Assembly (NCBI GenBank): GCA_044344255.1
Contig: JBIJDH010000022.1
Location: 32,001 to 96,000, forward strand
Reading direction: 5' to 3'
DNA from: Myxococcota bacterium
GTDB lineage: Bacteria; Myxococcota_A; UBA796; UBA2385
DNA: 64,000 bases
The translations under genes were made by a program, and so were the position numbers. Positions 17,362 through 33,375 of the stretch are shown piece after piece. The notes under the pieces are model-generated. The model had not been told where the DNA came from. It worked only from the letters and a program-made list of their open reading frames with translations, and made no database searches. Position 1 is the first letter of the stretch. Each line of letters opens with the position of its first letter.

Positions 17362-18192
<831 letters not shown>

Positions 18193-18365
18193 CGAGGGCT
18201 CCTTGTCCCATCCTCCTACACACAGCCCCCGGGCGCGGCTGGACCCCGCCGCGGGACGGGCTGTTCCGTGCGCGCAACACCTCGGGCTGGGGCCTCCCCC
18301 GCGCCTCCCCCGCGCCTCTCGCGGCCGAGGCCCCCCTCGATCGCTCCGCCTGGCTGCGCGGTCGC

Positions 18366-18938
18366 TCAGCCGAGCGGGGCCACCCCGATCAGCCACTTGT
18401 GGAAGAAGAGCAAGGTCACCGCGTACAAGCCGAGGCCCCCGACCACACAGATGAGGTCGTTCCAGCGCCCCCGCGGCGCCCCCGGAACCGGGCGGACGGG
18501 CCGCCACCGCAGCGAGAGCAAGTCCAGCGCCGCCCACACGAGGAAGGCGCCGAACAGGGCGAGATCGTGGAGCGCCCCGTTCACCAGCAGGTGCGATGCG
18601 GCCCACAGGCCCACCGCCAGCAGCATCGGGTTCTTCACCGCGTCCGAGATCCGCCCCGGCATGTACGCGGCGAACAGCAACGGGAAGAAGGGCAGCATCA
18701 GGGCGAGCACGCCGTGCCGGAGCCCAAAGGGCGGCCACCAGAGGAAGACGGGGCTCCGCCGCGCCACGGCGTAGCCGAAGACGACGAGCCCGAGGCCGAC
18801 CATCGAAACCAGGGAGTACAGCCCCTTCCAGGCGTTCTCCCCCATGCGGGCTACCATGGCGTCTCGCCAGCGGTTGGCCACGATCGACACCGAGTGCACG
18901 CCGAGGAAGAGGCCGAGGCCGAGGACGAGCAACAGCAT
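18366..18938 (-). CDS. nnrU: NnrU-family membrane protein
   Basis: LFLGVHS, WKGLYSLVS, KNPML..V.LWA.SHLLVNG, H.WLIGV.P. Confidence 0.88.
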   Translation of the reverse strand: MLLLVLGLGLFLGVHSVSIVANRWRDAMVARMGENAWKGLYSLVSMVGLGLVVFGYAVARRSPVFLWWPPFGLRHGVLALMLPFFPLLFAAYMPGRISDAVKNPMLLAVGLWAASHLLVNGALHDLALFGAFLVWAALDLLSLRWRPVRPVPGAPRGRWNDLICVVGGLGLYAVTLLFFHKWLIGVAPLG

Positions 18939-19351
18939 GTTCAGCGCTCCCTTTGCCTCGACCCCCTATCGGCTCCGCCCCGCGTGGCGAGCCGCCTCAC
19001 CCCCCGGCTCCCCGAGGCTCACCGGGCCACAACATAGGTCCTCCCCCTATCTCCTCCCAGCGGGCTGATCTCCAGCAGGTTCGGTTCGTTCTACAGCGGC
19101 AGGCTCGAAGGGGCGGGAATAGATCCAAGACGTTCCCAAGGGGAACAACGAGTCCGCTCAGAGGAGCCTCAAGTCCCCCTGAGTCTACGTACCGTCCACC
19201 GCCTTTGAAATGGTTCGAAGACCCTCGCGCTGCTCAACAGCGCACGGTGCAGGTGTAAGATTCGGTAGCCCGCTCGACGCCTCACGCGCCCCGCTCACCC
19301 CGAACACCTGAGGGAGTCCGACTCCCCACCCCATCTGATCGGAGCCCCGTC

Positions 19352-21634
19352 ATGTCCAATTCTGCCCGGCCCCTCCTCCTCGGCGCTGCCCTGCTGCTCT
19401 CGCTCTCTGCCGGCTGCGGTGGCGGCGCAGGCGCTGACGGCAAAGACGGCATCAACGGCAGCAACGGCGCCAACGGCGAGAGCGGCGCACCCGGCGGCAA
19501 CGGTCTCGATGGCGTCAACGGTGTCGACGGCATCAACGGCGTCGATGGCGTGGACGGGGAGACCGGCGCGGACGGTCACGACGGCCGCGACGGCCATGAC
19601 GGTGAGGGCCCCTGGGGCATCAACCTCACCCTCGTCTCGATCGACGGCGGCAGCGGCTCCGCCGGCGCCTTCCAGGTGGGCGACTTCCCGAGCGTGACCT
19701 TCACGCTGACCGACGACGACGGCCACGAGTACGACGTCTCCGAGCTCACCGGCTTCTACTTCAACGTCGCCGGCCCCACGAGCCACTACGCCAACGCGAT
19801 CCTCTACTCCGACCTCGCCAAGGTCGCCGACACCGCGGTCTACAACTTCGACGGCACCTGGACCTACGACTTCGACATCGCCTTCCCCGCGACCTACCAC
19901 GCCGTGCTCAACGACACGACCGACCTCGGCACCGACGACGGTGACTGGGGCGGCGAGGCGCTGGTCGACGGCACCTACACCGTGGCGGCCTGGGCCTACA
20001 GCAAGGTCACCCTCGACGACGGCAGCTACTACTACGAGGCCGGCAACGCGACCTCTGACGTCCTCTTCGGCACCGCGACGGCCATCGAGCCCCGCGAGGT
20101 GGTGCTCGAAGAGAACTGCGCCAACTGCCACGGCGACGAGTTCATGGCCCACGGCGGCAGCCGCCGCGACCTCGACGTCTGCCTCACCTGCCACGTCGAC
20201 GGCACCGAGGATCGGTACTCCGCCACCGACAGCACGGTCACCCCGGGCACCTCGGTCGGCATGACCACGATGATCCACAAGATCCACATGGGTGAGGACC
20301 TGAGCAACGGCTACACGGTCGCCGGCTACCCCGCGGACACCACCGATCCGGGCTACCCGAACTACAACTCGATCGACTACTCCGAGGTCGTGTTCCCGAG
20401 CTTCAAGGAGGGCTCCGCCTCCTGTGACTCCTGCCACAGCGGCGCGGCCGACGGCGACGTGAACACCCGCCCCACCCGCCAGGCCTGCGGCGCCTGCCAC
20501 GACAGCGTCGACTTCGCGGCTGGCACCAACCACGAGGGCGGCGCCCAGACCAACGACACCAACTGCGCGGTCTGCCACACCCCCGACAACATCGACGGCT
20601 ACCACCTCGACGCCCGCTTCGACACCACGTTCAACCCCGGCATCAACGTCGAGATCCTGACCGCCTCCGGCGGATCGGGCTCGGGCGGCGCCTTCCAGGC
20701 CGGTGACACCATCACCATCACCTTCAAGGCCACCCACGACGACGGCACCTACGTGCAGAAGTCGGAGTTCGCCTACTCCTCGTCTTCGTCCACCTGCGGC
20801 ACCCTCGCCGGCGGCTCGACGCTGTACCTTGGCGGTCCCACCGAGCACATGGAGCGGATCCAGTACTCCACCTCTCCCAGCAGCTCGTCCACGGTGGGCT
20901 CGGTCTACGGCAGCTCCACCTACGACTCCAGCACCGGCATCTACACCTACTCGATGCCCGCTGTGATCCCCTCGACGATCCCCGCGCAGCTCAACGACAC
21001 CACGGCCTTCGGCGAGGCCGAAGGTGACTGGTACGGGCTGCCGCTGCCCTCGGGCACCTACCGCCTCGGCCTCGCCCTCTACACCACCCTCTGGGACGCC
21101 GACTGCAACCGCGTCCGCGTGGCCGATACCACCTACTTCGACATCCTGATGGGCACCGCCACCACGATCGAAGACCACGACTTCGTGGACAACGCCTCCT
21201 GTGAGAGCTGTCACGAGACGGTGGAGTTCCACGGCGACACCCGCAATGACGTCTCCTACTGCGTCATGTGCCACACCCCGGGCTCGGAGGACTCCTCCTC
21301 TGTCAACCCGACCACCAGCCTCGACTTCCCCGTGATGATCCACAAGATCCACGGCAGCAGCATCCTCGAGAACGGCTACTGCGTCGGCTCGACCTGCTTC
21401 GACGTCACCTTCCCCCGCTTCGACGGCGGCGTTCAGGCCTGCACCGCCTGCCACGGCGCCACCGACAAGTGGGAGAACCCCTCGACCCGCGGCTGCATCA
21501 CCTGCCACGACTCCGAGGACGCGGCGGCCCACGCGGCCATCATGACCGATGACGTCTACGGTGAGAGCTGCGACACCTGCCACGGGCCGGGCCGCGACTA
21601 CTCCTCCGAGTCGGTCCACGCCTGGACTCGCTGA
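19352..21634 (+). CDS. OmcA/MtrC-family decaheme c-type cytochrome lipoprotein with collagen-like N-terminal region
   Basis: Lipobox SAGC, (G-X-Y)n repeat, 10 CxxCH in two groups of five, each after a beta-rich domain, two MIHKIH motifs, HGGSR/HGDTR after hemes 1 and 6. Confidence 0.9.
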   Translation: MSNSARPLLLGAALLLSLSAGCGGGAGADGKDGINGSNGANGESGAPGGNGLDGVNGVDGINGVDGVDGETGADGHDGRDGHDGEGPWGINLTLVSIDGGSGSAGAFQVGDFPSVTFTLTDDDGHEYDVSELTGFYFNVAGPTSHYANAILYSDLAKVADTAVYNFDGTWTYDFDIAFPATYHAVLNDTTDLGTDDGDWGGEALVDGTYTVAAWAYSKVTLDDGSYYYEAGNATSDVLFGTATAIEPREVVLEENCANCHGDEFMAHGGSRRDLDVCLTCHVDGTEDRYSATDSTVTPGTSVGMTTMIHKIHMGEDLSNGYTVAGYPADTTDPGYPNYNSIDYSEVVFPSFKEGSASCDSCHSGAADGDVNTRPTRQACGACHDSVDFAAGTNHEGGAQTNDTNCAVCHTPDNIDGYHLDARFDTTFNPGINVEILTASGGSGSGGAFQAGDTITITFKATHDDGTYVQKSEFAYSSSSSTCGTLAGGSTLYLGGPTEHMERIQYSTSPSSSSTVGSVYGSSTYDSSTGIYTYSMPAVIPSTIPAQLNDTTAFGEAEGDWYGLPLPSGTYRLGLALYTTLWDADCNRVRVADTTYFDILMGTATTIEDHDFVDNASCESCHETVEFHGDTRNDVSYCVMCHTPGSEDSSSVNPTTSLDFPVMIHKIHGSSILENGYCVGSTCFDVTFPRFDGGVQACTACHGATDKWENPSTRGCITCHDSEDAAAHAAIMTDDVYGESCDTCHGPGRDYSSESVHAWTR

Positions 21635-21673
21635 AGCGGATGGTGTGACGGCGCCTCGCAGCGGGGCGCCCTG

Positions 21674-21710
21674 AGCGGGGGGCGGCGTCTTCGGGCGCCG
21701 CCCCCTCGCT
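21674..21710. terminator. GC-rich hairpin between convergent genes, probable terminator
   Basis: GGGGGCGGCGTC-TTCG-GGCGCCGCCCCC stem with a cUUCGg loop, extended by AGCG/CGCT. No U-tract. Confidence 0.65.
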
Positions 21711-21727
21711 GCGTCTGGCCCCTTGGC

Positions 21728-22531
21728 TCAGGGCTTGGCGGCCACCGGGAACAAGACCGCCTCGGTGACGATCACGGGGTAGCTGTAGCCGGAGCCGTAG
21801 TCCTCATCGACCTTCACGAGGCCCTGCGCCTCGACCTCGACCCCCATCGCCGCCGCGGACTGGGTGGTCACGGTGAGGTCGTTCGTGCCGGAGGCGCCCG
21901 TGCCGTCCTGGATGTGGAGCCAGTTCCGCCCCATCACGCCCGGGGTGTACTTGACCACCTTGCCGCGTACGGTGACCGTCTTCCCCGCGAGGGCCTGGCG
22001 ATCGGACCACACCGAGGCGATGGTCTGGACGGGGCCGCCCGCGCGGGGCGCCGTGGGCGCAGGGATCGAGGCCGGCGCGGCCTCGCCGACGGGGGCCGCT
22101 GCGGCCGGCGTGGCGCCGTCGCCCGGGGCGCTGAGGCTCTCGACGAAGTAGACGAGCGGGAAGTCTCGGTTGAGCGTGTCGCTGTGGAAGTCGCGCATCG
22201 GCAGCGACAGGGTGAGCGCCACCCGGCTGCCCACGGGGGGCGCCGCGCCGCCGCTCGCCGCCCAGAGCTCCCCCTCGACCGTCTGGACCCGCACATAGCT
22301 GTACGGGGGAGCGGAGAGCCCCTCCACCACGGTGCCTTCGACGGTGGGGCCGGTGGGCTTGGTCGCCATGCCCGGCGCGGGGGCCGGGGCCTGCCCGGAG
22401 GTCGGGGCCTGAGCCGCGCCGAGGTCTTGGAAGGCCCCCGGGCTGAGCTGTCCGGGGCGGGCGCCCTCCGCGGGGGGGGTGGGCGCGGCGCCGTCACAGG
22501 CGACGAGGAGCGAGAGGAGCAGGAGGCGCAT
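21728..22531 (-). CDS. NrfJ-related lipoprotein with C-terminal OB-fold-like domain
   Basis: Lipobox LVAC. GTVVE...YSYVRV...WAA, F.S.TLNR.F..VYFV, VTVRGKVVK...MGRNWLHIQDG. Confidence 0.75.
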   Translation of the reverse strand: MRLLLLSLLVACDGAAPTPPAEGARPGQLSPGAFQDLGAAQAPTSGQAPAPAPGMATKPTGPTVEGTVVEGLSAPPYSYVRVQTVEGELWAASGGAAPPVGSRVALTLSLPMRDFHSDTLNRDFPLVYFVESLSAPGDGATPAAAAPVGEAAPASIPAPTAPRAGGPVQTIASVWSDRQALAGKTVTVRGKVVKYTPGVMGRNWLHIQDGTGASGTNDLTVTTQSAAAMGVEVEAQGLVKVDEDYGSGYSYPVIVTEAVLFPVAAKP

Positions 22532-22740
22532 GGGCGATGATCCGAAGGGTGGGTTTGCGGGAGCCGATTAGCCGCCGCAGCGCGCGCAGGCTCCCTCCCG
22601 CCGAGGGGGGGAGCGTGCCCCAACCCGCCGAAGCCTGCCCTCGATCATGGTAGCGTCGAGGCCCTCTGCGCACAGGCGCGCTACAGGCTCCCTCCCGCTG
22701 TCACCCACGCGGCGCTCCGATGCGCGAAGATCCGCTCCAG

Positions 22741-24819
22741 ATGCTCTCCACACGCCCACGCACGGATGATCCTCTGAGCCTGCATCCGCCCGCTCTGTTC
22801 GCGAGCCCCGCGCAGCGGCTCGGTCGCCTGTCGCTCGCCCTGCTGCTCGCCGGCTGCGCGGGGGGAGACGGCTGGCCCGACAGCGAGGAGCCCCGCCCCG
22901 CCGCCCTCGCCGCCACCCCCGCGGGCGCGCTCGAGGGGGAGCTCACCGGGCCCGACGGGGGGCCGCTCGCGGGCGCCTTCGTCACCACCGATCCCCTCGG
23001 CATGGGCGCGACCACCGGCGAAGACGGGCGCTTCCGGATCGAGCGCCTGCTCCCTGGCGAGTACACCGTCACCGCCGCCGCCGCCGGCCTCTCGGCCGTG
23101 GAGTCCGAGCCCTTTCTGATCGAGGCCGAGGGGGTGGCCTCGGTCTCCCTCACGCTCCCGGCCCTCCCCGAGCAGGACGGCCTCCTCCGCGTCACGGTGC
23201 TCAACGCCTTTGACGAGCCCGCGGCCGCCGTCCACGTGATCGCCACCGACGGCACCCTGACGGTCGAGGGCGACACCGACGCCTCGGGCGCCCTCACGCT
23301 GTCTGGCCTCGGCGGGCGCACGGTGAGCGTCTACGCGGCTGACCCCGCCGGTCGGCACGCCGCCCGCTCCACCGACGAGATCGCGGTGCCCGCCCTCGGC
23401 GGCGCGCAGGTCTCCTTCGCCCTCTCCGGCCAGCCTGACCCCGAGTGGCTGGGCACCTCTGGCACCCGCATCTGCGTGATGTGCCACGAAGACATCGCCG
23501 CGGTCTATCAAGGCTCGGCCCACGCCCAGGCGATGTCGGCGGTCGAGGGCGCCCCCGCCCTGGCCTTTGACCTCGGGCTCACGGTCGACCTCGAAGGCGC
23601 CACCGCCACCCTGAGCCGCGAGGGCGGCGAGCCCGTCGTCACCTTGGAGGACAGCGCCGGCGCCACCTCCACCTGGCCCGTGGCGGGCCTGCTCGGCGGA
23701 GAGCGCCGCGGCGCCATCCCCTGGACCGAGGTCGACGGGGTGTCCTGGCCGCTGCCCCTCGCCTGGCGCCCCGCCGATCCGCGCCGCCCGGGATGGGAGG
23801 AGCCCGCCTGGGTGGGCACAGACCTCGACGCCTGGTTCGACACCGACGGCACCTTCGCCTTCAGCGGCACGCCCCCCGCCGCCGCCTCGGCGGAGAACCG
23901 CTGCTTCGCCTGCCACGCCACCGGCTTCACCCTCGCCTCGGACGGCGGCGGGCAGGTCACGATGACCGCGACGAGCGAGCCCGACGCGCGCTGGGACGAA
24001 GCCGCCGTCGGCTGTGAGCGCTGCCACGGCCCCGGGCTCAGCCACTCGGCCGGCCTGCTCTCGGAGAAGCGCGCCACCATCATCAACCCCGACCGGCTCG
24101 ACGTCGCGCGGGGCAACGAGGTCTGCGGGCAGTGCCACTCCGCCCTCGCAGGCGCAGCGCACACCCCCTACGCCTGGAGCGAGGCCGAGGGCCTCTTCGC
24201 CCCGGGGGAGACCCTCTCCGACTACGCCGCCAGCGACTTCTCGGCCTGGACGGAGTCTGGTGTCACCGACCTCCCCGGCGCCGCGGCCGACGAGCTCAGC
24301 CGGTCGGCGCACGCCACCAACGGCTGGGAGGCCCGCTGCACCGACTGCCACGATCCGCACGGCAGCAGCGTCCGCTCCGACCTCCGCCAGGAGAGCGAAG
24401 ACAACACCCTCTGCAGCAGCTGTCACCTCGGCCTCGACTACGCGGGCGACGCGGCGGCGATGGCCGCCCACACCGGCCACAGCGCCTACGATCCAGGCAG
24501 CGAGGGGCACTCGGGCCAGTGCACCGGCTGCCACATGCCGCCCACGGCCACCCGCTCCGCCTGGTCCGACCTCTCCGCCGCCGGAGACCTCGCCAGCCAC
24601 CGCTTCCTCGCCGTGCCCCCCGCCGAGTCCCTCGCCTACTTCGAGGCCGCCGGCGCCACGACGCTCGAGCCCGGCACCTTCGTCCCCAACGCCTGTCAGG
24701 AGTGCCACGCCTGGAACGGGTGGCGCCTCGGCGCCGCCTTCACCGGGCCCACCGGCGACATGACGGCGCGCGCCACCCACGAGGCCCTCGACGGCGCCTA
24801 TGGGCTGATGTTCCCATGA
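22741..24819 (+). CDS. Octaheme c-type cytochrome lipoprotein with N-terminal carboxypeptidase-regulatory-like beta-sandwich domains (start could be 22720)
   Basis: Lipobox LAGC. G.PLAGA.V...TT.EDGRFRI..L.PGEYTV domain. 8 CxxCH including CERCHGPG and CTGCHMP...SHRF...PNACQECH. Confidence 0.88.
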   Translation: MLSTRPRTDDPLSLHPPALFASPAQRLGRLSLALLLAGCAGGDGWPDSEEPRPAALAATPAGALEGELTGPDGGPLAGAFVTTDPLGMGATTGEDGRFRIERLLPGEYTVTAAAAGLSAVESEPFLIEAEGVASVSLTLPALPEQDGLLRVTVLNAFDEPAAAVHVIATDGTLTVEGDTDASGALTLSGLGGRTVSVYAADPAGRHAARSTDEIAVPALGGAQVSFALSGQPDPEWLGTSGTRICVMCHEDIAAVYQGSAHAQAMSAVEGAPALAFDLGLTVDLEGATATLSREGGEPVVTLEDSAGATSTWPVAGLLGGERRGAIPWTEVDGVSWPLPLAWRPADPRRPGWEEPAWVGTDLDAWFDTDGTFAFSGTPPAAASAENRCFACHATGFTLASDGGGQVTMTATSEPDARWDEAAVGCERCHGPGLSHSAGLLSEKRATIINPDRLDVARGNEVCGQCHSALAGAAHTPYAWSEAEGLFAPGETLSDYAASDFSAWTESGVTDLPGAAADELSRSAHATNGWEARCTDCHDPHGSSVRSDLRQESEDNTLCSSCHLGLDYAGDAAAMAAHTGHSAYDPGSEGHSGQCTGCHMPPTATRSAWSDLSAAGDLASHRFLAVPPAESLAYFEAAGATTLEPGTFVPNACQECHAWNGWRLGAAFTGPTGDMTARATHEALDGAYGLMFP

Positions 24820-25694
24820 GTGAGACCAACCTCCTCCGCTCCCCTCCCGGCGCCCGCGCGGTCCGCCACGGGCTGCTCCTCCTGGCCCTCAGCGCCGTCG
24901 CCTGCGGCACGCCGGTCGAGCCCGCCAAGGGCGCGTCCGGCTCCAGCGGGGCCGTCCAGTTCCCCCACGCCGCGGGCTACAAGGCGGGCACCGACCACGG
25001 CGCCGAGGCCCTCGCCCTCGGACAGGCGGCCTGTAACGAGTGCCACCGCCCCGAGACCAACGCCCCCACCTGCGCCTCCTGCCACGAGGGCTACCCCCAC
25101 GAGGAGGGCTGGCTCGCTGGGACCGCCCACGGCGTCGGCCTCATCGGCGAGACCGGGGCCGCGGCCCTCCAGGTCTGCGGCGACTGCCACGGAAAGGCCG
25201 AGCTCACGGCCCCCTCCTGCACCACCTGCCACGACTCCTACCCCCACCCCGAGGGCTGGGAGCTCGCCGGCCAGCACGGCGCCTACACCCTCGCCCGCGG
25301 CTCGGCGGTGGCGGCCTGCGGAGGCTGCCACGGCGCCGCCCTCGAAGGGGTGACCGACCCCGACCGGGCGAGCCCCTCCTGCACGTCCTGTCACGCCACC
25401 TGGCCGCACCCCGAGGGCTGGGCCGCGGTCGAGGGCCACGGCGCGACCTCAGCCGCGCAGCTCCCCGACTGCTACGCCTGCCACGGTGAGGGCGGCACCG
25501 GCGGCATCGTCGCCCTGGCCTGCTCCCGCTGCCACGACGCCTTCCCCCACGCCGACGGCTGGACCCAGGGCCACCTCGCCTGGGTGAACGCCCGCGGCGA
25601 TCAGGCCTGCTTGAGCTGTCACGACGCCGGCTCCGCGGCCCCCACCATGCCGGCCTCCTGCGGCGCCGCCTGTCACTCTGGGAGCGGCGGATGA
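24816..25694 (+). CDS. Decaheme c-type cytochrome lipoprotein built from tandem two-heme repeats
   Basis: ATGA overlap, lipobox AVAC, 9 CxxCH plus a terminal CxxxCH, repeated (Y/W/F)PH..GW...HG. Confidence 0.88.
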   Translation: MSETNLLRSPPGARAVRHGLLLLALSAVACGTPVEPAKGASGSSGAVQFPHAAGYKAGTDHGAEALALGQAACNECHRPETNAPTCASCHEGYPHEEGWLAGTAHGVGLIGETGAAALQVCGDCHGKAELTAPSCTTCHDSYPHPEGWELAGQHGAYTLARGSAVAACGGCHGAALEGVTDPDRASPSCTSCHATWPHPEGWAAVEGHGATSAAQLPDCYACHGEGGTGGIVALACSRCHDAFPHADGWTQGHLAWVNARGDQACLSCHDAGSAAPTMPASCGAACHSGSGG

Positions 25695-26971
25695 TGCTCC
25701 TCCTCGGCGGGATCTTGTCGGCCACCGCCGCCGACCGCGACACCAGCCAGGGCGACGATGGGCTCCTCGACGGCCTGCACGCCTACGTCACCTCCGCGGC
25801 GGAGGTCCGGCCCGACCTCGTCGGCGAGCGGGACGTCCGGGCCCGACAGAGCCTCGGCCTGTCCACCCCGGTGGGCGAACACTGGTCCTTCGACCTCTCC
25901 GGCGCCCTCCGCCACGGCAGCGTCCACGACGCCGATCTCGACCTCCACGCCCTCCACCTCCAGGGAGAGGGGGAGCGGCTGCACCTCGAGCTCGGCCGAC
26001 AGGTGGTCGTCGATCCCCGCGGCCTGCAGCACCTCGACGGCCTCCGCCTCGAGCGCAGCGCCGGGCTCGTGGTCCCCGCATTCTGGCTCGGCCGGCTGTG
26101 GGCCCCCGAGGCCCCCTTCAAGGACCCCCGGCAGGCCGAAGACGACGCCGCCCACGGCACCCTCGTCGGGGGCGCCTCGGTAGACCTCCACCCCCCCGGC
26201 CCCGACGGCGAGCCCTCCGGCCGCGCCGGCCTCCGCCTGGGCTTCGAGGAGCAGCTCGAAGCCAGCGAGGCCCGCTCCCACGTCTTCGGCGCCGCCGAGC
26301 TCAACGGGCCCCGCGGCGGCCGTGGCACCCTGGACGCCGAGGCCGTCCCCGGCGAGGGGCAGCGCCTCGGCCTGCGCGCCATCGGGCCGGTGGGCCGTGT
26401 CCTCACCCTCGGCCCCGAGCTCCGCTACGAGGCCCTCGGCGTCAGCACCGTCTCCACCACCCGCCGCGACGCCATGGACTGGCTCGGCGGGGATGGCTAC
26501 GGCGTCGGCAGCCTCCTCATCGCCGGTCACCAGGGCGAGTGGACCGCCAGCGTCCAAGGCGGGCCGGTCTATCGGCCCGACCGCTCGGCGGGCGCCACCG
26601 GCAACGCCAACCTCCACTACCAGGCGAGCCCCACCTTCGGCCTCGGCCTCTTCGGCCTCAGCGCCTATGTCGAGGGCTCCGCGGTCACCGGCGGCGGGCT
26701 CCAGGCCGCCACCTCCCCCGAGGGCCTCCGCGTCAGCGGCGACGTCGGGCTCTATCGATTCACGCCGCTGACCGGCGCGGTCGCATCGGTGGGAGAGGCC
26801 CGCCTGCGGGCCAGCGCCCCCCTGCTGCGCCGCACCCACGGCGCCCGCGAGACCGCCGGCCTCCGCTTCCAGGCCGAGCTGGCGAGCGGCGCCGATCGAA
26901 ACCTCCAGCCCTGGATGCGCGGCGGCGTCGCGCTCAGCGGCAACCTCGGTCCGAGTGGGGACCACCCATGA
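25691..26971 (+). CDS. Putative outer-membrane beta-barrel (porin of a porin-cytochrome conduit)
   Basis: Signal peptide, no heme motifs, many alternating hydrophobic/polar strands, LELGRQ...LDG motif, lies between multiheme genes. Confidence 0.7.
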   Translation: MMLLLGGILSATAADRDTSQGDDGLLDGLHAYVTSAAEVRPDLVGERDVRARQSLGLSTPVGEHWSFDLSGALRHGSVHDADLDLHALHLQGEGERLHLELGRQVVVDPRGLQHLDGLRLERSAGLVVPAFWLGRLWAPEAPFKDPRQAEDDAAHGTLVGGASVDLHPPGPDGEPSGRAGLRLGFEEQLEASEARSHVFGAAELNGPRGGRGTLDAEAVPGEGQRLGLRAIGPVGRVLTLGPELRYEALGVSTVSTTRRDAMDWLGGDGYGVGSLLIAGHQGEWTASVQGGPVYRPDRSAGATGNANLHYQASPTFGLGLFGLSAYVEGSAVTGGGLQAATSPEGLRVSGDVGLYRFTPLTGAVASVGEARLRASAPLLRRTHGARETAGLRFQAELASGADRNLQPWMRGGVALSGNLGPSGDHP

Positions 26972-27591
26972 CGCCCCGCTTCGTCTCTCTCCGCCTGTCG
27001 GCGCTCCGCCTCTCTTCCTTCTGTCTGCCCGCGCTGCTGGTCGGCCTGCTCTGGTCGGGCGCCGAGGCGAAGGACGGGCCGGACCCCGCCCTCCTCCCCT
27101 CCCCCTTCCGGCACGCCGAGCACAAGGGCGCGTTCCAAGACGCCTCGGTCACCTGCGTAGACTGCCACGCGGTCGGCCTCCGCGGCGCCGACACCACCAT
27201 CGCGGTGCCGGTGATGCCCGCGGCGCCGTGGTCCACCTGCCACGGCTGTCACCGAGACGAGGTCCGCCGGGCCCCCGCCGCGGCCCCCTCCACCTGCCTC
27301 ACCTGCCACAGCTCGATGGCGGCGCTGAAGCCGACCGACCATCAGGTCGACTGGGTCCACCAGCACGGGGACGCCGCGCGGTCTCTCCAGGCCGACTGCT
27401 CGAGCTGCCACGACAAGGTGACCTGTGTCTCCTGCCACGAGGAGCGCGGCGCCCTGTCCAAGAACCCGCACCCGCCCGGCTTCGCCGCCTTCCACGGCGT
27501 ACAAGCCCAGCTCGACCCTCGCTCCTGCACCACCTGCCACACGCCCTCCACCTGCACGAGCTGCCACCAGTCGGGAGCTGCCCCATGGTGA
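26968..27591 (+). CDS. Heptaheme periplasmic c-type cytochrome
   Basis: ATGA overlap, signal peptide ending AEA, F.H..H then 7 CxxCH, repeated HG..A....CxxCH....CxxCH. Confidence 0.88.
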   Translation: MTPRFVSLRLSALRLSSFCLPALLVGLLWSGAEAKDGPDPALLPSPFRHAEHKGAFQDASVTCVDCHAVGLRGADTTIAVPVMPAAPWSTCHGCHRDEVRRAPAAAPSTCLTCHSSMAALKPTDHQVDWVHQHGDAARSLQADCSSCHDKVTCVSCHEERGALSKNPHPPGFAAFHGVQAQLDPRSCTTCHTPSTCTSCHQSGAAPW

Positions 27592-27878
27592 GCCGCCGCT
27601 GCGCCCTGCTCTTGTCCTTGCTCCTCGTCGCCTGCGGCGAGGAGGACCCCTGCCCCTACGGCTCGCTGCTCGACAGCCCGGCCGGCCTCACCCTGACCGC
27701 GGCCGAGCACCCCACCGGCTGGGGACAGGCGGAGTGTGTGAGCTGCCACGTCATGGAGACGCTGCACCGCTCCGGCTGCTCGCCCGACATCGATCCCGTC
27801 GAGCTCCAAGACGAGGTCGCCGCGCGGGGCCTCGAGGGCTGCGTGGACTGCCACGGCAATAACGGGGTGTCCGAATGA
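27585..27878 (+). CDS. Small diheme c-type cytochrome lipoprotein
   Basis: Lipobox LVAC. CVSCH and CVDCH. Overlaps both neighbours. Confidence 0.82.
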   Translation: MVSRRCALLLSLLLVACGEEDPCPYGSLLDSPAGLTLTAAEHPTGWGQAECVSCHVMETLHRSGCSPDIDPVELQDEVAARGLEGCVDCHGNNGVSE

Positions 27879-28771
27879 GCGCGCCTCTCGCCCTGTCCCT
27901 CAGCCTCTCGCTCCTCCTCGCCGGCTGCCTGTCCGCAGAGGCCACCGAGCGGCTCGGCAAGAGCCCCCACGGCGCCAAGGACGGCTGCGTGGCCTGCCAC
28001 GTGAGCGGTGCGGGCGCCCAGGGCGTCGGGGCGACGAAGCCGATCGAGGCCACCTGCCGCTCCTGCCACCCCGACGCCGACATGCACCCGGTGGGCATGA
28101 AGCCGCGCACGGTGAAGGTCGCCGCGGGCTGGCCGCTGGAGGACGGCGTGGTCACCTGCGCCACCTGCCACGCCGAGCCCGCCCACGGCGGCGTCGCGGC
28201 CACGCTCCCCTCGCCCTGGCATCGCGGCGGCCCCTATCCCACGACCACCGCCTTCTGCGCGAGCTGCCATGACATCGCGGCGTACTCGCGACAGAGCCCT
28301 CACACGAAAGAGAAGACCCGGGATCCCAAGGGCGCCACATGCACGGCCTGTCACAGCGGCCTGCCGGTGACCGGCGCTGCCCCTTCGGCGTCCCGCACCC
28401 GGGTGCCTGCCGACCAGAGCTGCACGGGCTGCCACGAAGGGCAGATCCACGCCGGAGTGGTCGAGCACGTCGGCAAGAGCGTGAGCCCTGCGGTGCGCGC
28501 CGCCCTCCCGCCTGCGGTCGCCGTCAACGCCGACGGCACCATCGCCTGCTGGACCTGCCACGAGGTCCACGACGGCGTGACGGCCACTCACCCCAACCGT
28601 CGTGTCCTCGCCGACGGCCTCCGGAGCCGCGCCTTGAAAGAGGACTGGACCGCCTATGCGGGGTCGGCCTATCTCTGGCCCCGCGCCGAAGCGGATGAGG
28701 GTTCGGCCATGCTGGCCCTGTCGATCGACGACGGCGCGCTCTGTCAGGCCTGTCACGGAGAGGGCCCATGA
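27875..28771 (+). CDS. Octaheme c-type cytochrome lipoprotein (cytochrome c3/paired-CxxCH type)
   Basis: Lipobox LAGC, 8 CxxCH, HPVG...PL.DG.V.CxxCH pattern. Confidence 0.88.
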   Translation: MSAPLALSLSLSLLLAGCLSAEATERLGKSPHGAKDGCVACHVSGAGAQGVGATKPIEATCRSCHPDADMHPVGMKPRTVKVAAGWPLEDGVVTCATCHAEPAHGGVAATLPSPWHRGGPYPTTTAFCASCHDIAAYSRQSPHTKEKTRDPKGATCTACHSGLPVTGAAPSASRTRVPADQSCTGCHEGQIHAGVVEHVGKSVSPAVRAALPPAVAVNADGTIACWTCHEVHDGVTATHPNRRVLADGLRSRALKEDWTAYAGSAYLWPRAEADEGSAMLALSIDDGALCQACHGEGP

Positions 28772-31290
28772 CCGCCTCCATCGCCCCGCTCCGCCCGCTC
28801 CTCTTCGCCTTGCCGCTCGCGCTCGGCGCCTGCGACCTGGTCGAAGTGCCCGAGATGGCCGACCACCCGCCCCTGCACGGGGTCACCGTCGTCTCGAAGG
28901 TGAAGCTCGACGCCTTCTACCCTACCGACGTCCTGCCCACGGCCGCCGGGGCGCTCGTGATCGACGGCTACAACAGCCGCCTCCTCGCCATCGACGCCGC
29001 CGGCGCCTCCCAGGAGCTCTCGATCGACCCCGCCACCTGGGCCGGCAGCCTCCGGCTCGGCGCGGGCAAGGAGGGGCATTGGGTCTCCGACGCGGGGGCG
29101 CGGGTCCTCCTCATCGCCCCCGACGGCGGCATCCTCCGCGAGCTCGAGCTGCCCTTCGGCGCCGACGACGTCCACGAGCCCGTGGCCCTGCTCGACCGCG
29201 GCGCCGAGCTGCTCGTCACCGACCGCCAGCACCACCTCCACTGGCTCGACCCGCAAGACGGCCACTTCCTCCGCTCGGTCGACCTCGGCGCCGAGGCCCC
29301 CGCCGTGCTGACCGACCTCGTCCCGCGTACGGGCGGCGGCTTCTGGGCCACCGATCCGCTCGCCGCCCAGGTCATCGGCTTCTCCGCCGACGGCGTGGTC
29401 GAGCTCCGCTTCGGGCACCGGGGCGGCGGCGTGGGCAACCTCGTCCAGCCCAAGGGGCTCGCGGTGGTGCAAGGCGGCGTCTTTGTCGCCGACTCCGCGC
29501 TCGGGATCGTCCAGCTCTTCGATGAGAAGGGCCAATTCCGCGCCGCCCTCTCCGACTTCGGAGACAAGAAGCAGGAGGCCCCGCTCGACTTCGGCCACCC
29601 CGTCGCCGTGGAGGACGCCGGAGACGGCCGACTCCTCGTGCTCGACGCCGAGGGCCCCACCCTCTGGACCCTCGAGCTCCGGGCGCCGGCCGTCGCCGCC
29701 CGCCTGGCCCAGCCCCCCGGCCGCTGGCAGCGCAGCCCGATCCTCGAGGTGATGGACAAGGTCCCCGGCGAGAACGGAGAGACCTGCCTCCAGTGCCACG
29801 ACGGCTTCGTCAAGGACAGCCGCCGCAATTGGGATCCCACCCGCTCACACCACCCGGTCCACACCGAGGTCAAGCGCGAGCTCCCCGCCTTCTTCCCCCT
29901 CGACGACAAGGGGCAGCTCGCCTGTGAGACCTGCCACAGCCCCCACGGCGAGGTCAACCCCAAGCAGGCCATCGAGGCCAAGACCGAGGAGGAGCGCGCG
30001 CAGCTCAAGCGCCAGGAGACGGGGAGCTTCACCCGCCTCTCGATGGACGACGCCTCCCTCTGTATCGCCTGTCATGCCGGCGACCCCCACGCGGCCGTCT
30101 CCGAGCAGCTCGGCGTCGGCAAGAGCCACCTCGCCGGGCAGGCCCTCCGCGAGGCCCTCGAGCGCCGCCCGAACGCGGTGCCGGGAGAGGCCGCCCAAGC
30201 CGACCTCGGCTGCGTCGGCTGCCACGCCGTCCACGGCGGCGACGGGGAGTCCCTCTCTCGACAGACGAGCGACGGGCGGGTCTGCGCCAACTGCCACGAG
30301 TCGCAGGCCACCACGGGCCACCCCACCGGGACCCGCGCCGCCTCCCGCCCCTCTCCGAGCCTCGCCTCAGCGATCCCGCTCGACCAGCAGGGACACGTGA
30401 GCTGCATGTCCTGCCACGACCTCTCCGACGCCCGGGGAGAGTCCCTGCTCCGAGATCCCGCCGACGGCGGCCAGCTCTGCGCCTCCTGCCACAAAGACCT
30501 CGCCGCCACCGTGCGGACCGAGCACAGCGGCCACGGTCTCGCCTGTCAGGACTGCCACGACCCCCACGCCGGGAAGGGCGAGCACCTGCTCGACGCGAGC
30601 CTCGTCGCCGCCACCGCCCGCGCTGAGTCTGACCCCCTCGGCTGCACGAGCTGCCACGGCCCGAAGGGGAAGGGCGGCGCCGTCACCGCCCTCCACCCCC
30701 TCGGCGCCAAGGCCCCGAACGGCAGCACCGTCTCGTGCGCGAGCTGCCACACCGACGCCCACGCTCCTTCCAAGGCCCCTGCGGCCGGCTGCGCCGACTG
30801 CCACACGGAGCAGGCCCAGGCCCAGAAGGCGGGCGGCCACGCCGGGCACGGCGACGTCGCCTGCGTGACCTGCCACAACCCCCACAAAGCCAGCGCCACC
30901 GCGGGCCTCGCCCCCGCGGGCACCAACCCTGCGTCCCTCCGCTGCCTGACCTGTCACTCGGAGAGCGCCCGCGGCCAGGCCGAGGCCCCCAAGGTCGCCG
31001 CCTACGAGCACCCCGCGCCGGTCTTCAAGACCGACGGCACCCGCTGGGAGCCGCTGGGCGGCCTGCCCCTCTACGACAAGCGCGGGATCGCGGTCGGCCC
31101 GAAGGAGAACGGCGCCCTCACCTGCCAGTCCTGCCACCTCACCCACGGGCCGGCGGAGGGCGCCGAGAAGCTGCGCCGCCCCGACGGCTGGAAGGAGGCC
31201 TGCGCCTCCTGTCACGGCGCCGACAGCCTCGTGCTCTATCGGTACTTCCACCAGCCCGACCGCCGCAAGGACATCGTGGTGAAGCCGTGA
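28768..31290 (+). CDS. Lipoprotein: NHL-repeat beta-propeller fused to a 15-heme cytochrome
   Basis: Lipobox LGAC. NHL-like FG.RG...GNL.QPKGLAV...VFVADS. 15 CxxCH in the C-terminal ~500 aa. Confidence 0.88.
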   Translation: MTASIAPLRPLLFALPLALGACDLVEVPEMADHPPLHGVTVVSKVKLDAFYPTDVLPTAAGALVIDGYNSRLLAIDAAGASQELSIDPATWAGSLRLGAGKEGHWVSDAGARVLLIAPDGGILRELELPFGADDVHEPVALLDRGAELLVTDRQHHLHWLDPQDGHFLRSVDLGAEAPAVLTDLVPRTGGGFWATDPLAAQVIGFSADGVVELRFGHRGGGVGNLVQPKGLAVVQGGVFVADSALGIVQLFDEKGQFRAALSDFGDKKQEAPLDFGHPVAVEDAGDGRLLVLDAEGPTLWTLELRAPAVAARLAQPPGRWQRSPILEVMDKVPGENGETCLQCHDGFVKDSRRNWDPTRSHHPVHTEVKRELPAFFPLDDKGQLACETCHSPHGEVNPKQAIEAKTEEERAQLKRQETGSFTRLSMDDASLCIACHAGDPHAAVSEQLGVGKSHLAGQALREALERRPNAVPGEAAQADLGCVGCHAVHGGDGESLSRQTSDGRVCANCHESQATTGHPTGTRAASRPSPSLASAIPLDQQGHVSCMSCHDLSDARGESLLRDPADGGQLCASCHKDLAATVRTEHSGHGLACQDCHDPHAGKGEHLLDASLVAATARAESDPLGCTSCHGPKGKGGAVTALHPLGAKAPNGSTVSCASCHTDAHAPSKAPAAGCADCHTEQAQAQKAGGHAGHGDVACVTCHNPHKASATAGLAPAGTNPASLRCLTCHSESARGQAEAPKVAAYEHPAPVFKTDGTRWEPLGGLPLYDKRGIAVGPKENGALTCQSCHLTHGPAEGAEKLRRPDGWKEACASCHGADSLVLYRYFHQPDRRKDIVVKP

Positions 31291-31439
31291 CCGCCCCCAC
31301 CGCCACCGATCCGAGCGCCAACCGGCTCCGGACCCTCAAGCTGTCGCTCCTCGCCTTCATCCTCGGCTTCATCGCCGTCGGTGGGGTCGCGATGAACATT
31401 CGGTTTCTGTGGAACGCCTATCTGCACGGGGGCCTCTAG
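31287..31439 (+). CDS. 50-aa single-pass membrane peptide
   Basis: GTGA overlap with the upstream stop and TAG/GTG overlap with the downstream gene. Hydrophobic LSLLAFILGFIAVGGVAM. Confidence 0.65.
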   Translation: MTAPTATDPSANRLRTLKLSLLAFILGFIAVGGVAMNIRFLWNAYLHGGL

Positions 31440-32242
31440 TGTCAGCCCATCCTGAACCCTCCGAGGGGGCCGCGGGGACCTCCCTCCTCGGCGCCCCCTT
31501 CCGCTGGCTCCGCGACACCTTCCGCTTCCTCGGCGCCCACCCCTCGAGCTTCGCGGTGGTCGGCGTGGCGCTCGCCGCCGGCGCCCTCGCTGGCGTGCCC
31601 ATGCACGAGAAGGGCTACGACTACATGTGGCGGGACGCGCGCTTCTGCGACGACTGCCACGTCCACGACTATGCGAACGAGGCCTGGGCCACCTCCATCC
31701 ACGGCGGCGTGACCACCTGTCACGACTGCCACCGGGTGCCCATCCGCCACTACCCGCGCAACCTCTTCGTCACCGTCTTCGACGCGCCCCAGTCTGAGGC
31801 CGACATCCACCGCCCCGAGGTGGGCACCCAGATCTGCAGCCAGTGCCACCTGCGCGAGGAAGGAGACGAGCCGCTCACCGGCCCCCTGCCCGAGGCGGTC
31901 CGACAGAAGCTCGTCAAGGTCGACGACAGCCCGCTGCACAAGGTCCACATGTCGGCCACCTCCCGGCTTCCCTCCGCCTACCAGCGCGGCAAGGAAGACC
32001 AGACGGGCGGCACCGCGCTCGAGGCCAGCGACAAGAGCCACGAGGGCGCCGCCGGGGCCATCCTCTGCGCCGACTGCCACGGCGCCGGCCCGAACCGCGC
32101 CCACAGCTTCGAGGCCACGCGCGACAACTGCGTCCTCTGCCACCAGGAGTCCCAGGCCCACGCGGGCGGCGCCGCCAGCCTCGACTGCCGGGACTGCCAC
32201 CTGTCCGGCTTCCTCGCGCCTGCGGAGACCGCGGCGCGCTGA
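31439..32242 (+). CDS. Membrane-anchored hexaheme cytochrome, NapC/NirT-like N-terminus
   Basis: N-terminal TM segment, then FCDDCH......W..S.H....CHDCH (NapC/NirT spacing), 6 CxxCH in total. Confidence 0.8.
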   Translation: MSAHPEPSEGAAGTSLLGAPFRWLRDTFRFLGAHPSSFAVVGVALAAGALAGVPMHEKGYDYMWRDARFCDDCHVHDYANEAWATSIHGGVTTCHDCHRVPIRHYPRNLFVTVFDAPQSEADIHRPEVGTQICSQCHLREEGDEPLTGPLPEAVRQKLVKVDDSPLHKVHMSATSRLPSAYQRGKEDQTGGTALEASDKSHEGAAGAILCADCHGAGPNRAHSFEATRDNCVLCHQESQAHAGGAASLDCRDCHLSGFLAPAETAAR

Positions 32243-32289
32243 GAACATCCACGACGTGCAGCTCGTCGGTGAAGCCGGGTCCGTTGTCG

Positions 32290-32318
32290 TTGACGTGCGA
32301 TCCGAGGGCCGGTATATA
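32290..32318 (+). promoter_or_regulatory. Sigma-70-type promoter candidate
   Basis: TTGACG-17 bp-TATATA (overlapping TATACT), unusual in such GC-rich DNA. Confidence 0.55.
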
Positions 32319-32324
32319 CTGGTA

Positions 32325-32660
32325 AGCTCATCCACTAGGCGTGGAAGGAGTCACGAGTCCGCCCCCAAAGGGCGTTCTCAGCTTTTTCGGGACTGGCCGG
32401 AAGCGACGAGGCCGCTACAGTCTCCGCGCCTTTTGAGTTGTTGTCGCACTCATTTTTGTGATTCGGACCTGAGACTCACACCAGCCACCAAGCGCTCCGG
32501 TATCGCAGAGCAGTCCATCTCAGTCCGAGCTCCCTACCGCAAGCGGGGGCTCCCGAGATCCTCCGACACGGGCCACTACTCCCATTCGCCCAAGTAGAAG
32601 TCGGGCAGCAGCTCCCGGATATCGAACCTGTTGCTCGAGATGGCCCGTGTAGGGCTCCGA
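32325..32660 (+). ncRNA. Candidate structured non-coding RNA (family unknown)
   Basis: Series of hairpins and a three-way junction (32566-32575/32641-32650, 32576-32580/32593-32597, 32601-32611/32628-32638) with G-U pairs that form only on the + strand. No convincing ORF. Confidence 0.3.
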
Positions 32661-32709
32661 CCAGTCTTGCGCATCAAGCCTCCACATTCTGATGGTCCCC
32701 TCCCCACAC

Positions 32710-33340
32710 ATGCCGAGCCACCCGCGAGGGGTCCGCGTGGCGGCGCCTCCGGGTCGCCTTCGGGCTCAGCTCGGCGGCCGCCTGCGATCGACGCCCCCGC
32801 GGCGAGGGGCCCGAGGCATCCGACGCCCCCGCGGAGCACCCCGACCCGAGCGACATGGACGACGACTGGCTCTTCGCCCCCCTCCGCGTCAATCGGATCG
32901 ACCTCCGCGCGCTCTCCGAGCGGGTAGACATGCGCCGCCTCCACGCCACGCTGGCGGCCGAGTGGTACCTCGGAAACGCCGACGGGTGCGGATCGTTCTC
33001 CAACAACTACCGCCTCTACCTCCCGCCCGACGGGCCGGCGGTGCTCGCCCCCTGGGACATGGGCTCCGCCTTCCCCGAAGCGGGGCGGGACGAGGCGCTG
33101 TGGGTCGAGCCCGCCGGGAACCTCGCGGCCCTCTGCTTCGCCGATCCCGACTGCCTCCGCGAGCAGGAGGCGCGGCGGGGAGGGCTCGAGGAGACCGTCC
33201 AGCAGGCCGGCCTCGCCGAGGGCGCGGCGGCGGTCCGGGCGCGGATCCGCACCGCGGCCGAGCGAGACCCCTGGGGCGCCTGCGACCCCGACGCGGTCCA
33301 GTCGGCCCAAGCGCGGGTCCTCGAATGGTTCGACGGCTGA
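32710..33340 (+). pseudogene. CotH-kinase-like lipoprotein remnant
   Basis: ORF 32855..33340 has a CotH-like C-terminal part (EWYLGNADG....NNYRLY.....PWDM). The frame extends upstream to a lipobox-like SAAAC, but the nearest ATG (32710) is out of frame, and the ORF is far shorter than a CotH domain. Confidence 0.5.
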
Positions 33341-33375
33341 GCGCTCGGCGGGCCGCTGTTTGAGGGTGTGAGGCT

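Follow-up and report, generated by a model that had tools for sequence, protein, structure and literature searches.

The porin-cytochrome (Pcc) clusters of Geobacter are the closest described relatives of the system considered here. Pcc porins have been reported to possess 18-22 strands (PMC4282303) and to share 8-100% identity, with outer cytochromes that do not co-evolve with the porin (PMC4245776; PMC4282303). Inner-membrane and periplasmic cytochrome genes have already been noted in pcc clusters (PMC4245776). In Desulfobacterota, mtrC is described as often lying apart from mtrAB (PMC12133095). A boreal-lake survey places Myxococcota at the top of its list of unnamed "novel clusters" for extracellular electron transfer (EET), alongside MtrC, ExtABC and CbcL (10.1101/2022.03.26.485925). 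The present work concerns a locus at 19352-32242 of a 64-kb window (the whole stretch of DNA analysed; 72% GC) from a Myxococcota bacterium with a genome of 8.18 Mb, 95% complete. The locus comprises an mtrC gene and a nine-gene operon, g1-g9. No description of this operon was found in the portions of the literature available, and the supplements of the boreal-lake survey (10.1101/2022.03.26.485925) may list its proteins. A first-pass annotation had presented the locus as a candidate new EET system with a non-Mtr porin-cytochrome operon. Its novelty in kind is not supported: the system is real, conserved and uncharacterised, and it is a branch of the Pcc porin-cytochrome kind rather than a new kind. 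Its barrel and heptaheme cytochrome are distant homologues of Geobacter OmbB/ExtB and OmaB/ExtC, and the octaheme lipoprotein opening the operon also aligns with OmcB-slot proteins.

The Heme-Rich Locus

Eight cytochrome genes lie in 19352-32242, with 10, 8, 9, 7, 2, 8, 15 and 6 CxxCH heme motifs; an additional CX3CH in the third brings the 65 canonical motifs to 66. In six frames, CxxCH occurs 65 times in this interval, for which the rate across the genome predicts 0.70 (per 12.9 kb), and twice in the remaining 51 kb of the window. No other locus of the genome is as rich in heme motifs. All eight cytochrome open reading frames (ORFs) are real, with a GC content at third codon positions (GC3) of 0.89-0.95 around the motifs. 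The cluster of eight cytochromes and 66 motifs described in the first pass is thus borne out; of the ten motifs it counted in 24816-25694, nine are canonical, but the tenth is the C-terminal CX3CH.

The nine genes (22741-32242) are chained by overlapping stop and start codons, as had been claimed, and each junction was located: ATGA at 24816, 25691, 26968, 27875 and 28768, GTGA at 31287, an overlap of 7 nt at 27585 and one of 1 nt at 31439. A consensus promoter scan at the locus found none. Directly 3' of the operon, 32256-32600 is lower in GC and non-coding-like, with a GC3 of ~0.6-0.65 in all frames. The locus is not an assembly join, because a single contig from a riverine run (X16) covers 17504-34500 with 304 letters differing; an assembly artefact was ruled out by the same contig.

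The Barrel and Its Modelled Heptaheme Partner

The product of g3 (25691..26971, +) is a heme-free protein of 426 aa. AlphaFold2 folds it into an outer-membrane beta-barrel of 22 strands without a plug domain (predicted local distance difference test, pLDDT, 90; predicted template modelling score, pTM, 0.82), and fold searches returned outer-membrane barrels, the best at Z 19.7 (root mean square deviation, rmsd, 3.9; 347 aligned), which supports the barrel proposed for this gene. The matches were TonB-dependent, usher and porin barrels (MtrB 6R2Q_B at Z 15.8); no Pcc structure was listed among them, although one may exist. A cryo-electron microscopy structure of an Om(abc)B complex has reportedly been obtained recently. 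No Pfam or NCBIfam family matches g3, and when 70 and 19 barrel members were scanned, none was assigned to a porin family; 84 representative homologues were found in all. Searches of Protein Data Bank (PDB) sequences with barrel profiles and an OmbB-type porin gave no relative, and a first scan of genome contigs with the single g3 sequence gave no match. No Pfam or NCBIfam model covers these barrels, and the conduit therefore escapes screens based on such families.

The adjoining g4 (26968..27591, +) encodes a heptaheme cytochrome of 207 aa with a cleavable signal peptide. Multimer modelling seats g4 in the lumen of g3 with a two-chain score of 0.79, against 0.00 for the best control; the mark applied is reached by 116 of 157 solved pairs and by 2 of 215 mismatched pairs. 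At least 73% of the contacts agree between runs and the partner pLDDT is at least 64. Residues 103-203 of g4, with five of the seven heme motifs, contact alternating residues on nearly all g3 strands, that is, the lumen. The model predicts g4 to be the plug of the barrel, and the loop pattern suggests that its C-terminal part would point outward and its first two hemes would stay in the periplasm.

Kinship With Porin-Cytochrome Systems

A broad barrel profile built from 38 sequences (A6) was run against 301 genomes sampled from the phylum that includes a Syntrophobacteria-titled locus; it matched 29, of which 27 gave weak matches. The porin stands beside multiheme cytochromes in all 20 Desulfobacterota loci fetched, in an ombB-omaB-omcB or extABCD-like order. 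In one of these loci the porin (404 aa), the octaheme and the 9-12-heme lipoprotein are duplicated in tandem, and others show the order 11-heme, porin, 5-heme, 6-heme. Their cytochromes were judged by eye, against reference sequences in the PMC11492766 supplement, to be of the OmaB/C, OmcB and OmaV/ExtC types; OmbB-type porins were recognised by their position beside OmaB/OmcB orthologues, not via a named OmbB sequence.

In hhalign comparisons, the broad barrel sets reach 99.0% and 99.5% with OmbB-type porins, over 372 and 358 columns, and 98.4% and 99.3% with the ExtB type, compared with less than 2% for TonB barrels and less than 1% for an MtrB-like protein as controls. The cytochrome g4 aligns with the OmaB type at 99.3% over 144 columns, and its C-terminal five-heme part with the ExtC/OmaV-type pentaheme at 99.05% over 80 columns. 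Hidden Markov models of OmaB/ExtC find g4 as the only or first match in the host genome; the other operon multihemes match the OmaB type over shorter lengths or more weakly, except for the g4-like g2 (98.8%). Residues G102, R103, D116 and G117 are common to all 60 aligned porins. Identity clustering of these porins places g3 in its own cluster of 18; since this grouping is not a tree, no donor or order of events is claimed. The 22 predicted strands of g3 fall within the Pcc range, and the published ranges of identity and strand number allow the locus to fit the Pcc family as a new branch. Judged by sequence, g3 and g4 are a distant, uncharacterised Pcc subfamily of OmbB/ExtB and OmaB/ExtC homologues. 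A categorically new system was rejected once the broad barrel profile had matched OmbB- and ExtB-type porins.

Homology of the conduit to MtrAB was also ruled out. The MtrB/PioB porin family (PF11854) has no match across the 95% complete host genome or among 70 barrel homologues, the best MtrA/DmsE score (TIGR03508) in the genome is 53.9 bits against a cut-off of 192.2, and hhalign stays below 1% with the MtrB-like protein. The first-pass remark that neither MtrA/DmsE nor MtrB is recognisable extends, at these cut-offs, to the genome.

Conservation and Swappable Modules

In the host class, 68 of 182 genomes contain a match to the A6 profile, and for 49 of these E is below 1e-29; the count includes genomes that supplied A6, and the surroundings of the gene were inspected in a subset. 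Sampling of the phylum to which an Oligoflexia-titled locus belongs gave matches in 11 of 201 genomes, 9 of them strong. Group names of loci are record titles, and many titles among the closest named g9 relatives are clearly unreliable. Synteny was surveyed in 23 loci selected via the barrel (several cut by contig ends, one scoring nothing at the thresholds used) and in 51 named loci selected via g9; the DNA of both sets is partly shared and their counts are not additive. Gene order is kept across these relatives. Among the barrel-selected loci, g4 is present in 21, g5 in 19, and g6, g7, g1 and g2 in 17 each; among the g9-selected loci, a g4-like gene is found in 38 and a g7-like gene in 48. 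Bdellovibrionota-titled loci hold a reduced operon of barrel, 7-heme, 2-heme, 4-heme, NHL 11-heme, microprotein and hexaheme, with the tetraheme in place of g6.

The outer units are exchangeable. In three of the 23 barrel-selected loci, g1-g2 are replaced by a PsrA/ArrA-like molybdoenzyme, an Fe-S subunit and a TorD-like chaperone. An adjacent surface decaheme is of the MtrC type in 3 and a Big_2 lipoprotein of the OmcB-C-terminal type in 7; the latter aligns with the C-half of OmcB at 99.9% over 281 columns (hhalign). A PDB sequence search with the 803-aa neighbour decaheme gave no match. In 8 of the 51 g9-selected loci, mtrC follows g9 in the same direction. An MtrC/OmcA-family gene over cut-off also flanks the OmbB-/ExtB-type porin in 5 of the 20 Desulfobacterota loci (L169, L175, L176, L180, L186), and no MtrB match was found in those five genomes, for which completeness is not given. 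The hybrid architecture proposed in the first pass is present in the window as MtrC beside a Pcc porin without MtrB, but it is not unique to it.

Other features were observed around these operons. An Fe-S subunit, a PsrA/ArrA-like molybdoenzyme, a TorD-like chaperone and small cytochromes open the operon at L064:3495-8820, L065:9283-16635 and L066:3593-8856, a candidate set for an outer-membrane molybdoenzyme fed by a Pcc conduit. Repeat cytochromes resembling g2, with 18-30 heme motifs, stand beside the operon in Bdellovibrionota-titled loci (L105:10781-12271, L106:10804-14176, L113:13380-15539, L117). One genome (L076/L082) has several tandem, partly inverted operon copies, one with an apparently broken barrel, plus a CbcL-like gene. 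Further porin clusters of the Myxococcota phylum have distant barrels and 8-27-heme cytochromes (L071:5152-10270, L077:7346-11549). Beside the operon at L123:14887-16714, L124:12389-14686 and L081:14347-18102 lie genes that, judged by eye, resemble those for system II cytochrome c maturation or for the biosynthesis of heme.

The Inner-Membrane End

The last two genes encode membrane proteins. The 50-aa product of g8 (31287..31439, +) is a single-pass membrane protein by hydropathy and ends in a conserved His-Gly-Gly. Across records with titles ranging from Myxococcota to Bdellovibrionota, most loci have a small g8-like ORF immediately before g9, and g8 is probably a partner of g9. The latter (31439..32242, +) encodes a hexaheme of 267 aa, anchored by an N-terminal membrane helix and with a weak NapC/NirT/NrfH likeness. 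This similarity makes g9 a candidate quinol dehydrogenase, which would oxidise quinol.

The strongest argument linking the conduit to the quinone pool is that three unrelated quinol-interacting modules alternate in one slot. This slot holds g9 in 12 of the 23 barrel-selected loci, a CbcL-like cytochrome b/8-heme fusion in 2, and a tetraheme/Fe-S/NrfD set in 1 (L070); two further loci have a divergent hexaheme, in one case followed by Fe-S, Mo-like and NrfD genes. Such alternation is expected of the envelope-spanning wire that the first pass had envisaged.

MtrC and the Other Cytochromes

The decaheme encoded upstream of the operon (19352..21634, +; 760 aa) is a true member of the MtrC/OmcA family, as first annotated. 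Its TIGR03507 score is 270.4 bits against a cut-off of 209.3, PF22113 and PF01391 match as well, and PDB sequence matches are MtrF (3PMQ, E 2.9e-16) and MtrC (6R2Q_C, E 1.9e-11). It has a lipobox-type Cys and a Gly-X-Y collagen-like stalk at residues 27-84, and it is likely to act as a surface terminal reductase. In the window, mtrC is its own transcription unit, parted from the operon by an oppositely oriented gene (21728..22531, -) for a heme-free lipoprotein of 267 aa. This product is OB-fold/NrfJ-like by its Atlas structure neighbour ("NrfJ family protein", TM 0.58), and Pfam and NCBIfam scans gave no match to it; a gene of this type adjoins the cluster in 3 of the 51 named loci.

The octaheme lipoprotein g1 (22741..24819, +; 692 aa; PF13620, PF13435, PF09699) begins with a carboxypeptidase-regulatory-like domain. 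In hhalign comparisons its heme part corresponds to the N-half of two OmcB-slot proteins (99.9% over 412 columns) and matches the OmcB type at 98.1% over 222 columns, and g1 may be exposed at the surface. The lipoprotein g2 (24816..25694, +; 292 aa; 9 CxxCH and 1 CX3CH) is composed of repeats akin to g4/OmaB, reaching 99.2% with g4 and the 98.8% given above with the OmaB type; its lipobox pattern is found in 15 of 16 aligned homologues. The diheme lipoprotein g5 (27585..27878, +; 97 aa) is a near-invariant neighbour of g4, in 19 of the 23 barrel-selected loci and also in Bdellovibrionota-titled loci, and may serve as a cap or adaptor at the barrel. A lipobox-type Cys is present in six cytochromes of the locus, g1, g2 and g5 among them, in agreement with the six lipoproteins first counted, but that of the octaheme g6 (27875..28771, +; 298 aa) is not kept in homologues and is doubtful. 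Homologue N-termini ruled out g6 as a conserved lipoprotein, and since the lipobox occurs only here the protein is probably periplasmic. The 840-aa g7 (28768..31290, +) combines an NHL-like beta-propeller with a 15-heme cytochrome: PF09699 and TIGR01905 score over cut-off, the NHL-family model NF035926 matches weakly, and a split homologue carries PF01436 NHL. It may form a wire spanning the periplasm.

In the window, 22741-26971 is possibly a mosaic: the nearest counterparts of g1 and g2 (46-56%) come from loci with one barrel subtype (L083, L088, L089, L103), and g3 clusters with another. Directly upstream of mtrC, 18366-18938 (-) encodes an NnrU-family membrane protein, a possible link to nitric oxide or denitrification, and 14389-17334 (+) encodes a 981-aa lipoprotein with DUF6851 and a weak match to the second domain of vanadium haloperoxidase.

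Proposed Electron Path and Alternatives

With a probability of roughly 0.7, the operon is a Pcc-superfamily (OmbB-OmaB/Ext) conduit provided with an inner-membrane and periplasmic feed. Quinol would be oxidised by the membrane hexaheme g9 together with the microprotein g8, and electrons would cross the periplasm by way of g7, the 15-heme NHL protein, and the octaheme g6 to the heptaheme g4, the C-terminal five-heme part of which would thread the 22-strand barrel g3. From g4 they would be handed to g5, g2 and g1, which we infer to face the surface, and to the MtrC decaheme docked there. MtrC might then reduce extracellular acceptors, e.g., Fe(III)/Mn(IV) particles or humic matter. Electrons would more probably flow outward than inward.

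Several points weigh against this reading. The g9 protein scores below all NapC/NirT cut-offs (TIGR03153, 33 vs 134 bits; PF03264, 21.3 vs 24.1 bits), and its structure model (pLDDT 75.5) has NrfH 2J7A_C as its best but weak fold match (Foldseek E 0.26, Z 4.9, rmsd 4.3, 122 aligned), so that the NapC/NirT assignment is a weak one. The first heme of the NapC/NirT family follows the ligand pattern CxxCHxM; g9 has His, not Met, two residues past heme 1, invariant in 34 of 34 aligned homologues. The narrow barrel profile reaches 95.8% with OmbB-type porins over only 259 columns and 52% with the ExtB type, mean porin identity to both types is only 13-14%, and multiheme profiles cross-match partly via heme motifs, g6 and g7 reaching 96% with the OmaB type over ~50 columns. 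Hemes were absent when the g3-g4 complex was folded, and the solved MtrAB complex has a similar architecture, so the score may partly reflect that likeness; the model therefore supports g3-g4 binding but does not show it. Finally, mtrC is not co-transcribed with the operon here and is nearby in only 3 of the 23 barrel-selected loci.

A wider claim is tentative and, taken whole, less likely than not. The operon would represent an undescribed, self-contained Pcc subfamily acting as a plug-and-play wire of barrel, heptaheme plug, diheme cap and NHL multiheme, with the His-Gly-Gly microprotein and the hexaheme as a new two-subunit quinol dehydrogenase. Docking on this wire would be interchangeable among MtrC, OmcB-like decahemes and a molybdoenzyme, MtrC would work without MtrAB, and uncultured freshwater Myxococcota and Bdellovibrionota would respire extracellular acceptors.

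The same conduit might be run inward: extracellular Fe(II), reduced humics or partner cells would then supply the quinone pool with electrons and feed nitrate, nitrite, N2O or low-O2 respiration, an unlikely alternative. In its favour, the host encodes NrfH, NirK, clade II NosZ and cbb3 oxidase, and NrfA- and NapA-like proteins that score under cut-off. These were identified in a scan of 35 chosen proteins, as were an ACIII/Qrc-like complex and Ccm-like maturation genes, for which the first pass had proposed a check elsewhere in the genome. The Ccm-like genes, a GspD gene, NrfH, NirK, clade II NosZ, cbb3 oxidase and the missing RuBisCO are equally counted in favour of the main, outward reading. 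One host cluster (L203, G000:C29:157000-176999) groups NapA-like, NirK, a tetraheme/Fe-S/NrfD module and clade II NosZ; the module is of the type seen in the L070 slot. Moreover, NapC/NirT and CbcL-type proteins are described as serving both directions (PMC6295460), and clusters of NHL and multiheme porin genes have been proposed for uptake in Tenderiales (10.1101/2022.05.06.490989). On the other hand, no RuBisCO was found in the 95% complete genome, other CO2-fixation routes not having been searched, and the surface partners are of MtrC and OmcB types, known from reductive systems. The respiratory gene set and the missing RuBisCO suggest that the host is a facultatively anaerobic heterotroph.

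Less probable again is a cluster that mainly stores charge, a 66-heme capacitor or redox buffer in a particle-attached facultative anaerobe under fluctuating oxygen, with mineral respiration as a minor activity. The very high heme content would suit such a role, which has been suggested for multiheme proteins (PMC11495043), and the 20 runs listed with near-identical DNA, which belong to 17 studies, are of lake, river or freshwater origin, although 4 of these rows may be the source. Storage, however, needs neither a conserved barrel-plug pair nor exchangeable surface enzymes such as the molybdoenzyme set of 3 of the 23 loci. No RNA run is listed among the holders of this DNA; five short exact contigs from RNA library X24 cover parts of mtrC and the upstream stretch, and nothing was taken from them because contigs cannot show transcription or rank genes. 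Least credible is a functional separation of operon and mtrC, with periplasmic lipoproteins serving a periplasmic reductase chain and a barrel importing substrate: mtrC forms its own unit, 20 of the 23 barrel-selected loci have no adjacent mtrC and the membrane side of the lipoproteins is our inference, but the genome was found to hold no MtrB or MtrA to serve MtrC, mtrC follows g9 in the 8 loci noted above, and the barrel lumen is modelled as filled by g4.

The favoured conduit is of note for its full-envelope operon, its swappable modules, an MtrC without MtrAB, a conserved microprotein and unexpected hosts that are not known as metal reducers. If it is true, direct EET would extend to a common uncultured lineage, with strong barrel matches in 49 of the 182 genomes of its class, and to Bdellovibrionota, with such matches in 9 of the 201 genomes sampled. 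It would also suggest which conduit "orphan" mtrC genes lacking mtrAB connect to, and would provide a naturally occurring collection of interchangeable modules, inner and outer, around a single conserved core of porin and plug.

Comparison With Known Systems

The PCC3 (PMC9900912) and Uet (10.1101/2022.05.06.490989) systems of Fe oxidisers and Tenderiales resemble the locus in their large operons with a porin and long multiheme cytochromes; Uet shares NHL proteins with the window operon and PCC3 an inner-membrane protein. Both are set apart here by their descriptions, since the published heme counts are 21-27 in the periplasmic PCC3 cytochrome and 11 + 4 + 3x3 in Uet. Shewanella MtrCAB-CymA is alike in a true MtrC/OmcA decaheme, a membrane-anchored NapC/NirT-like candidate and the principle of a porin with a plug. 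It differs in that the host genome has no MtrA/MtrB matches, g9 is a hexaheme instead of a tetraheme, and MtrB has 26 strands (PMC12133095) compared with 22 in g3, with hhalign below 1% to the MtrB-like sequence.

Geobacter ExtABCD/ExtEFG (PMC6148476) is closer, with porin homology of 98-99% by the broad profiles, several small lipoprotein cytochromes, and a pentaheme of the ExtC/OmaV type aligning with the C-terminal five-heme part of g4. However, g4 is not a lipoprotein, no ExtA-type dodecaheme lies upstream, and gene order and heme counts differ. In Geobacter OmbB-OmaB-OmcB (PMC4282303; PMC4245776), a homologous plug-less porin of ~400-430 aa directly precedes a homologous small periplasmic multiheme cytochrome, and g1 and the Big_2 decaheme of relatives align with OmcB-type N- and C-halves. 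Porin identity is nevertheless ~14%, with g3 in its own cluster, and the g4 plug has 7 hemes instead of 8. At the window locus g4 is followed by a diheme, and a full-length 12-heme OmcB, as in the omcB cluster proper, is missing. The window operon adds a diheme lipoprotein, an NHL 15-heme protein, a microprotein and a membrane hexaheme, and MtrC takes the place of the large surface cytochrome.

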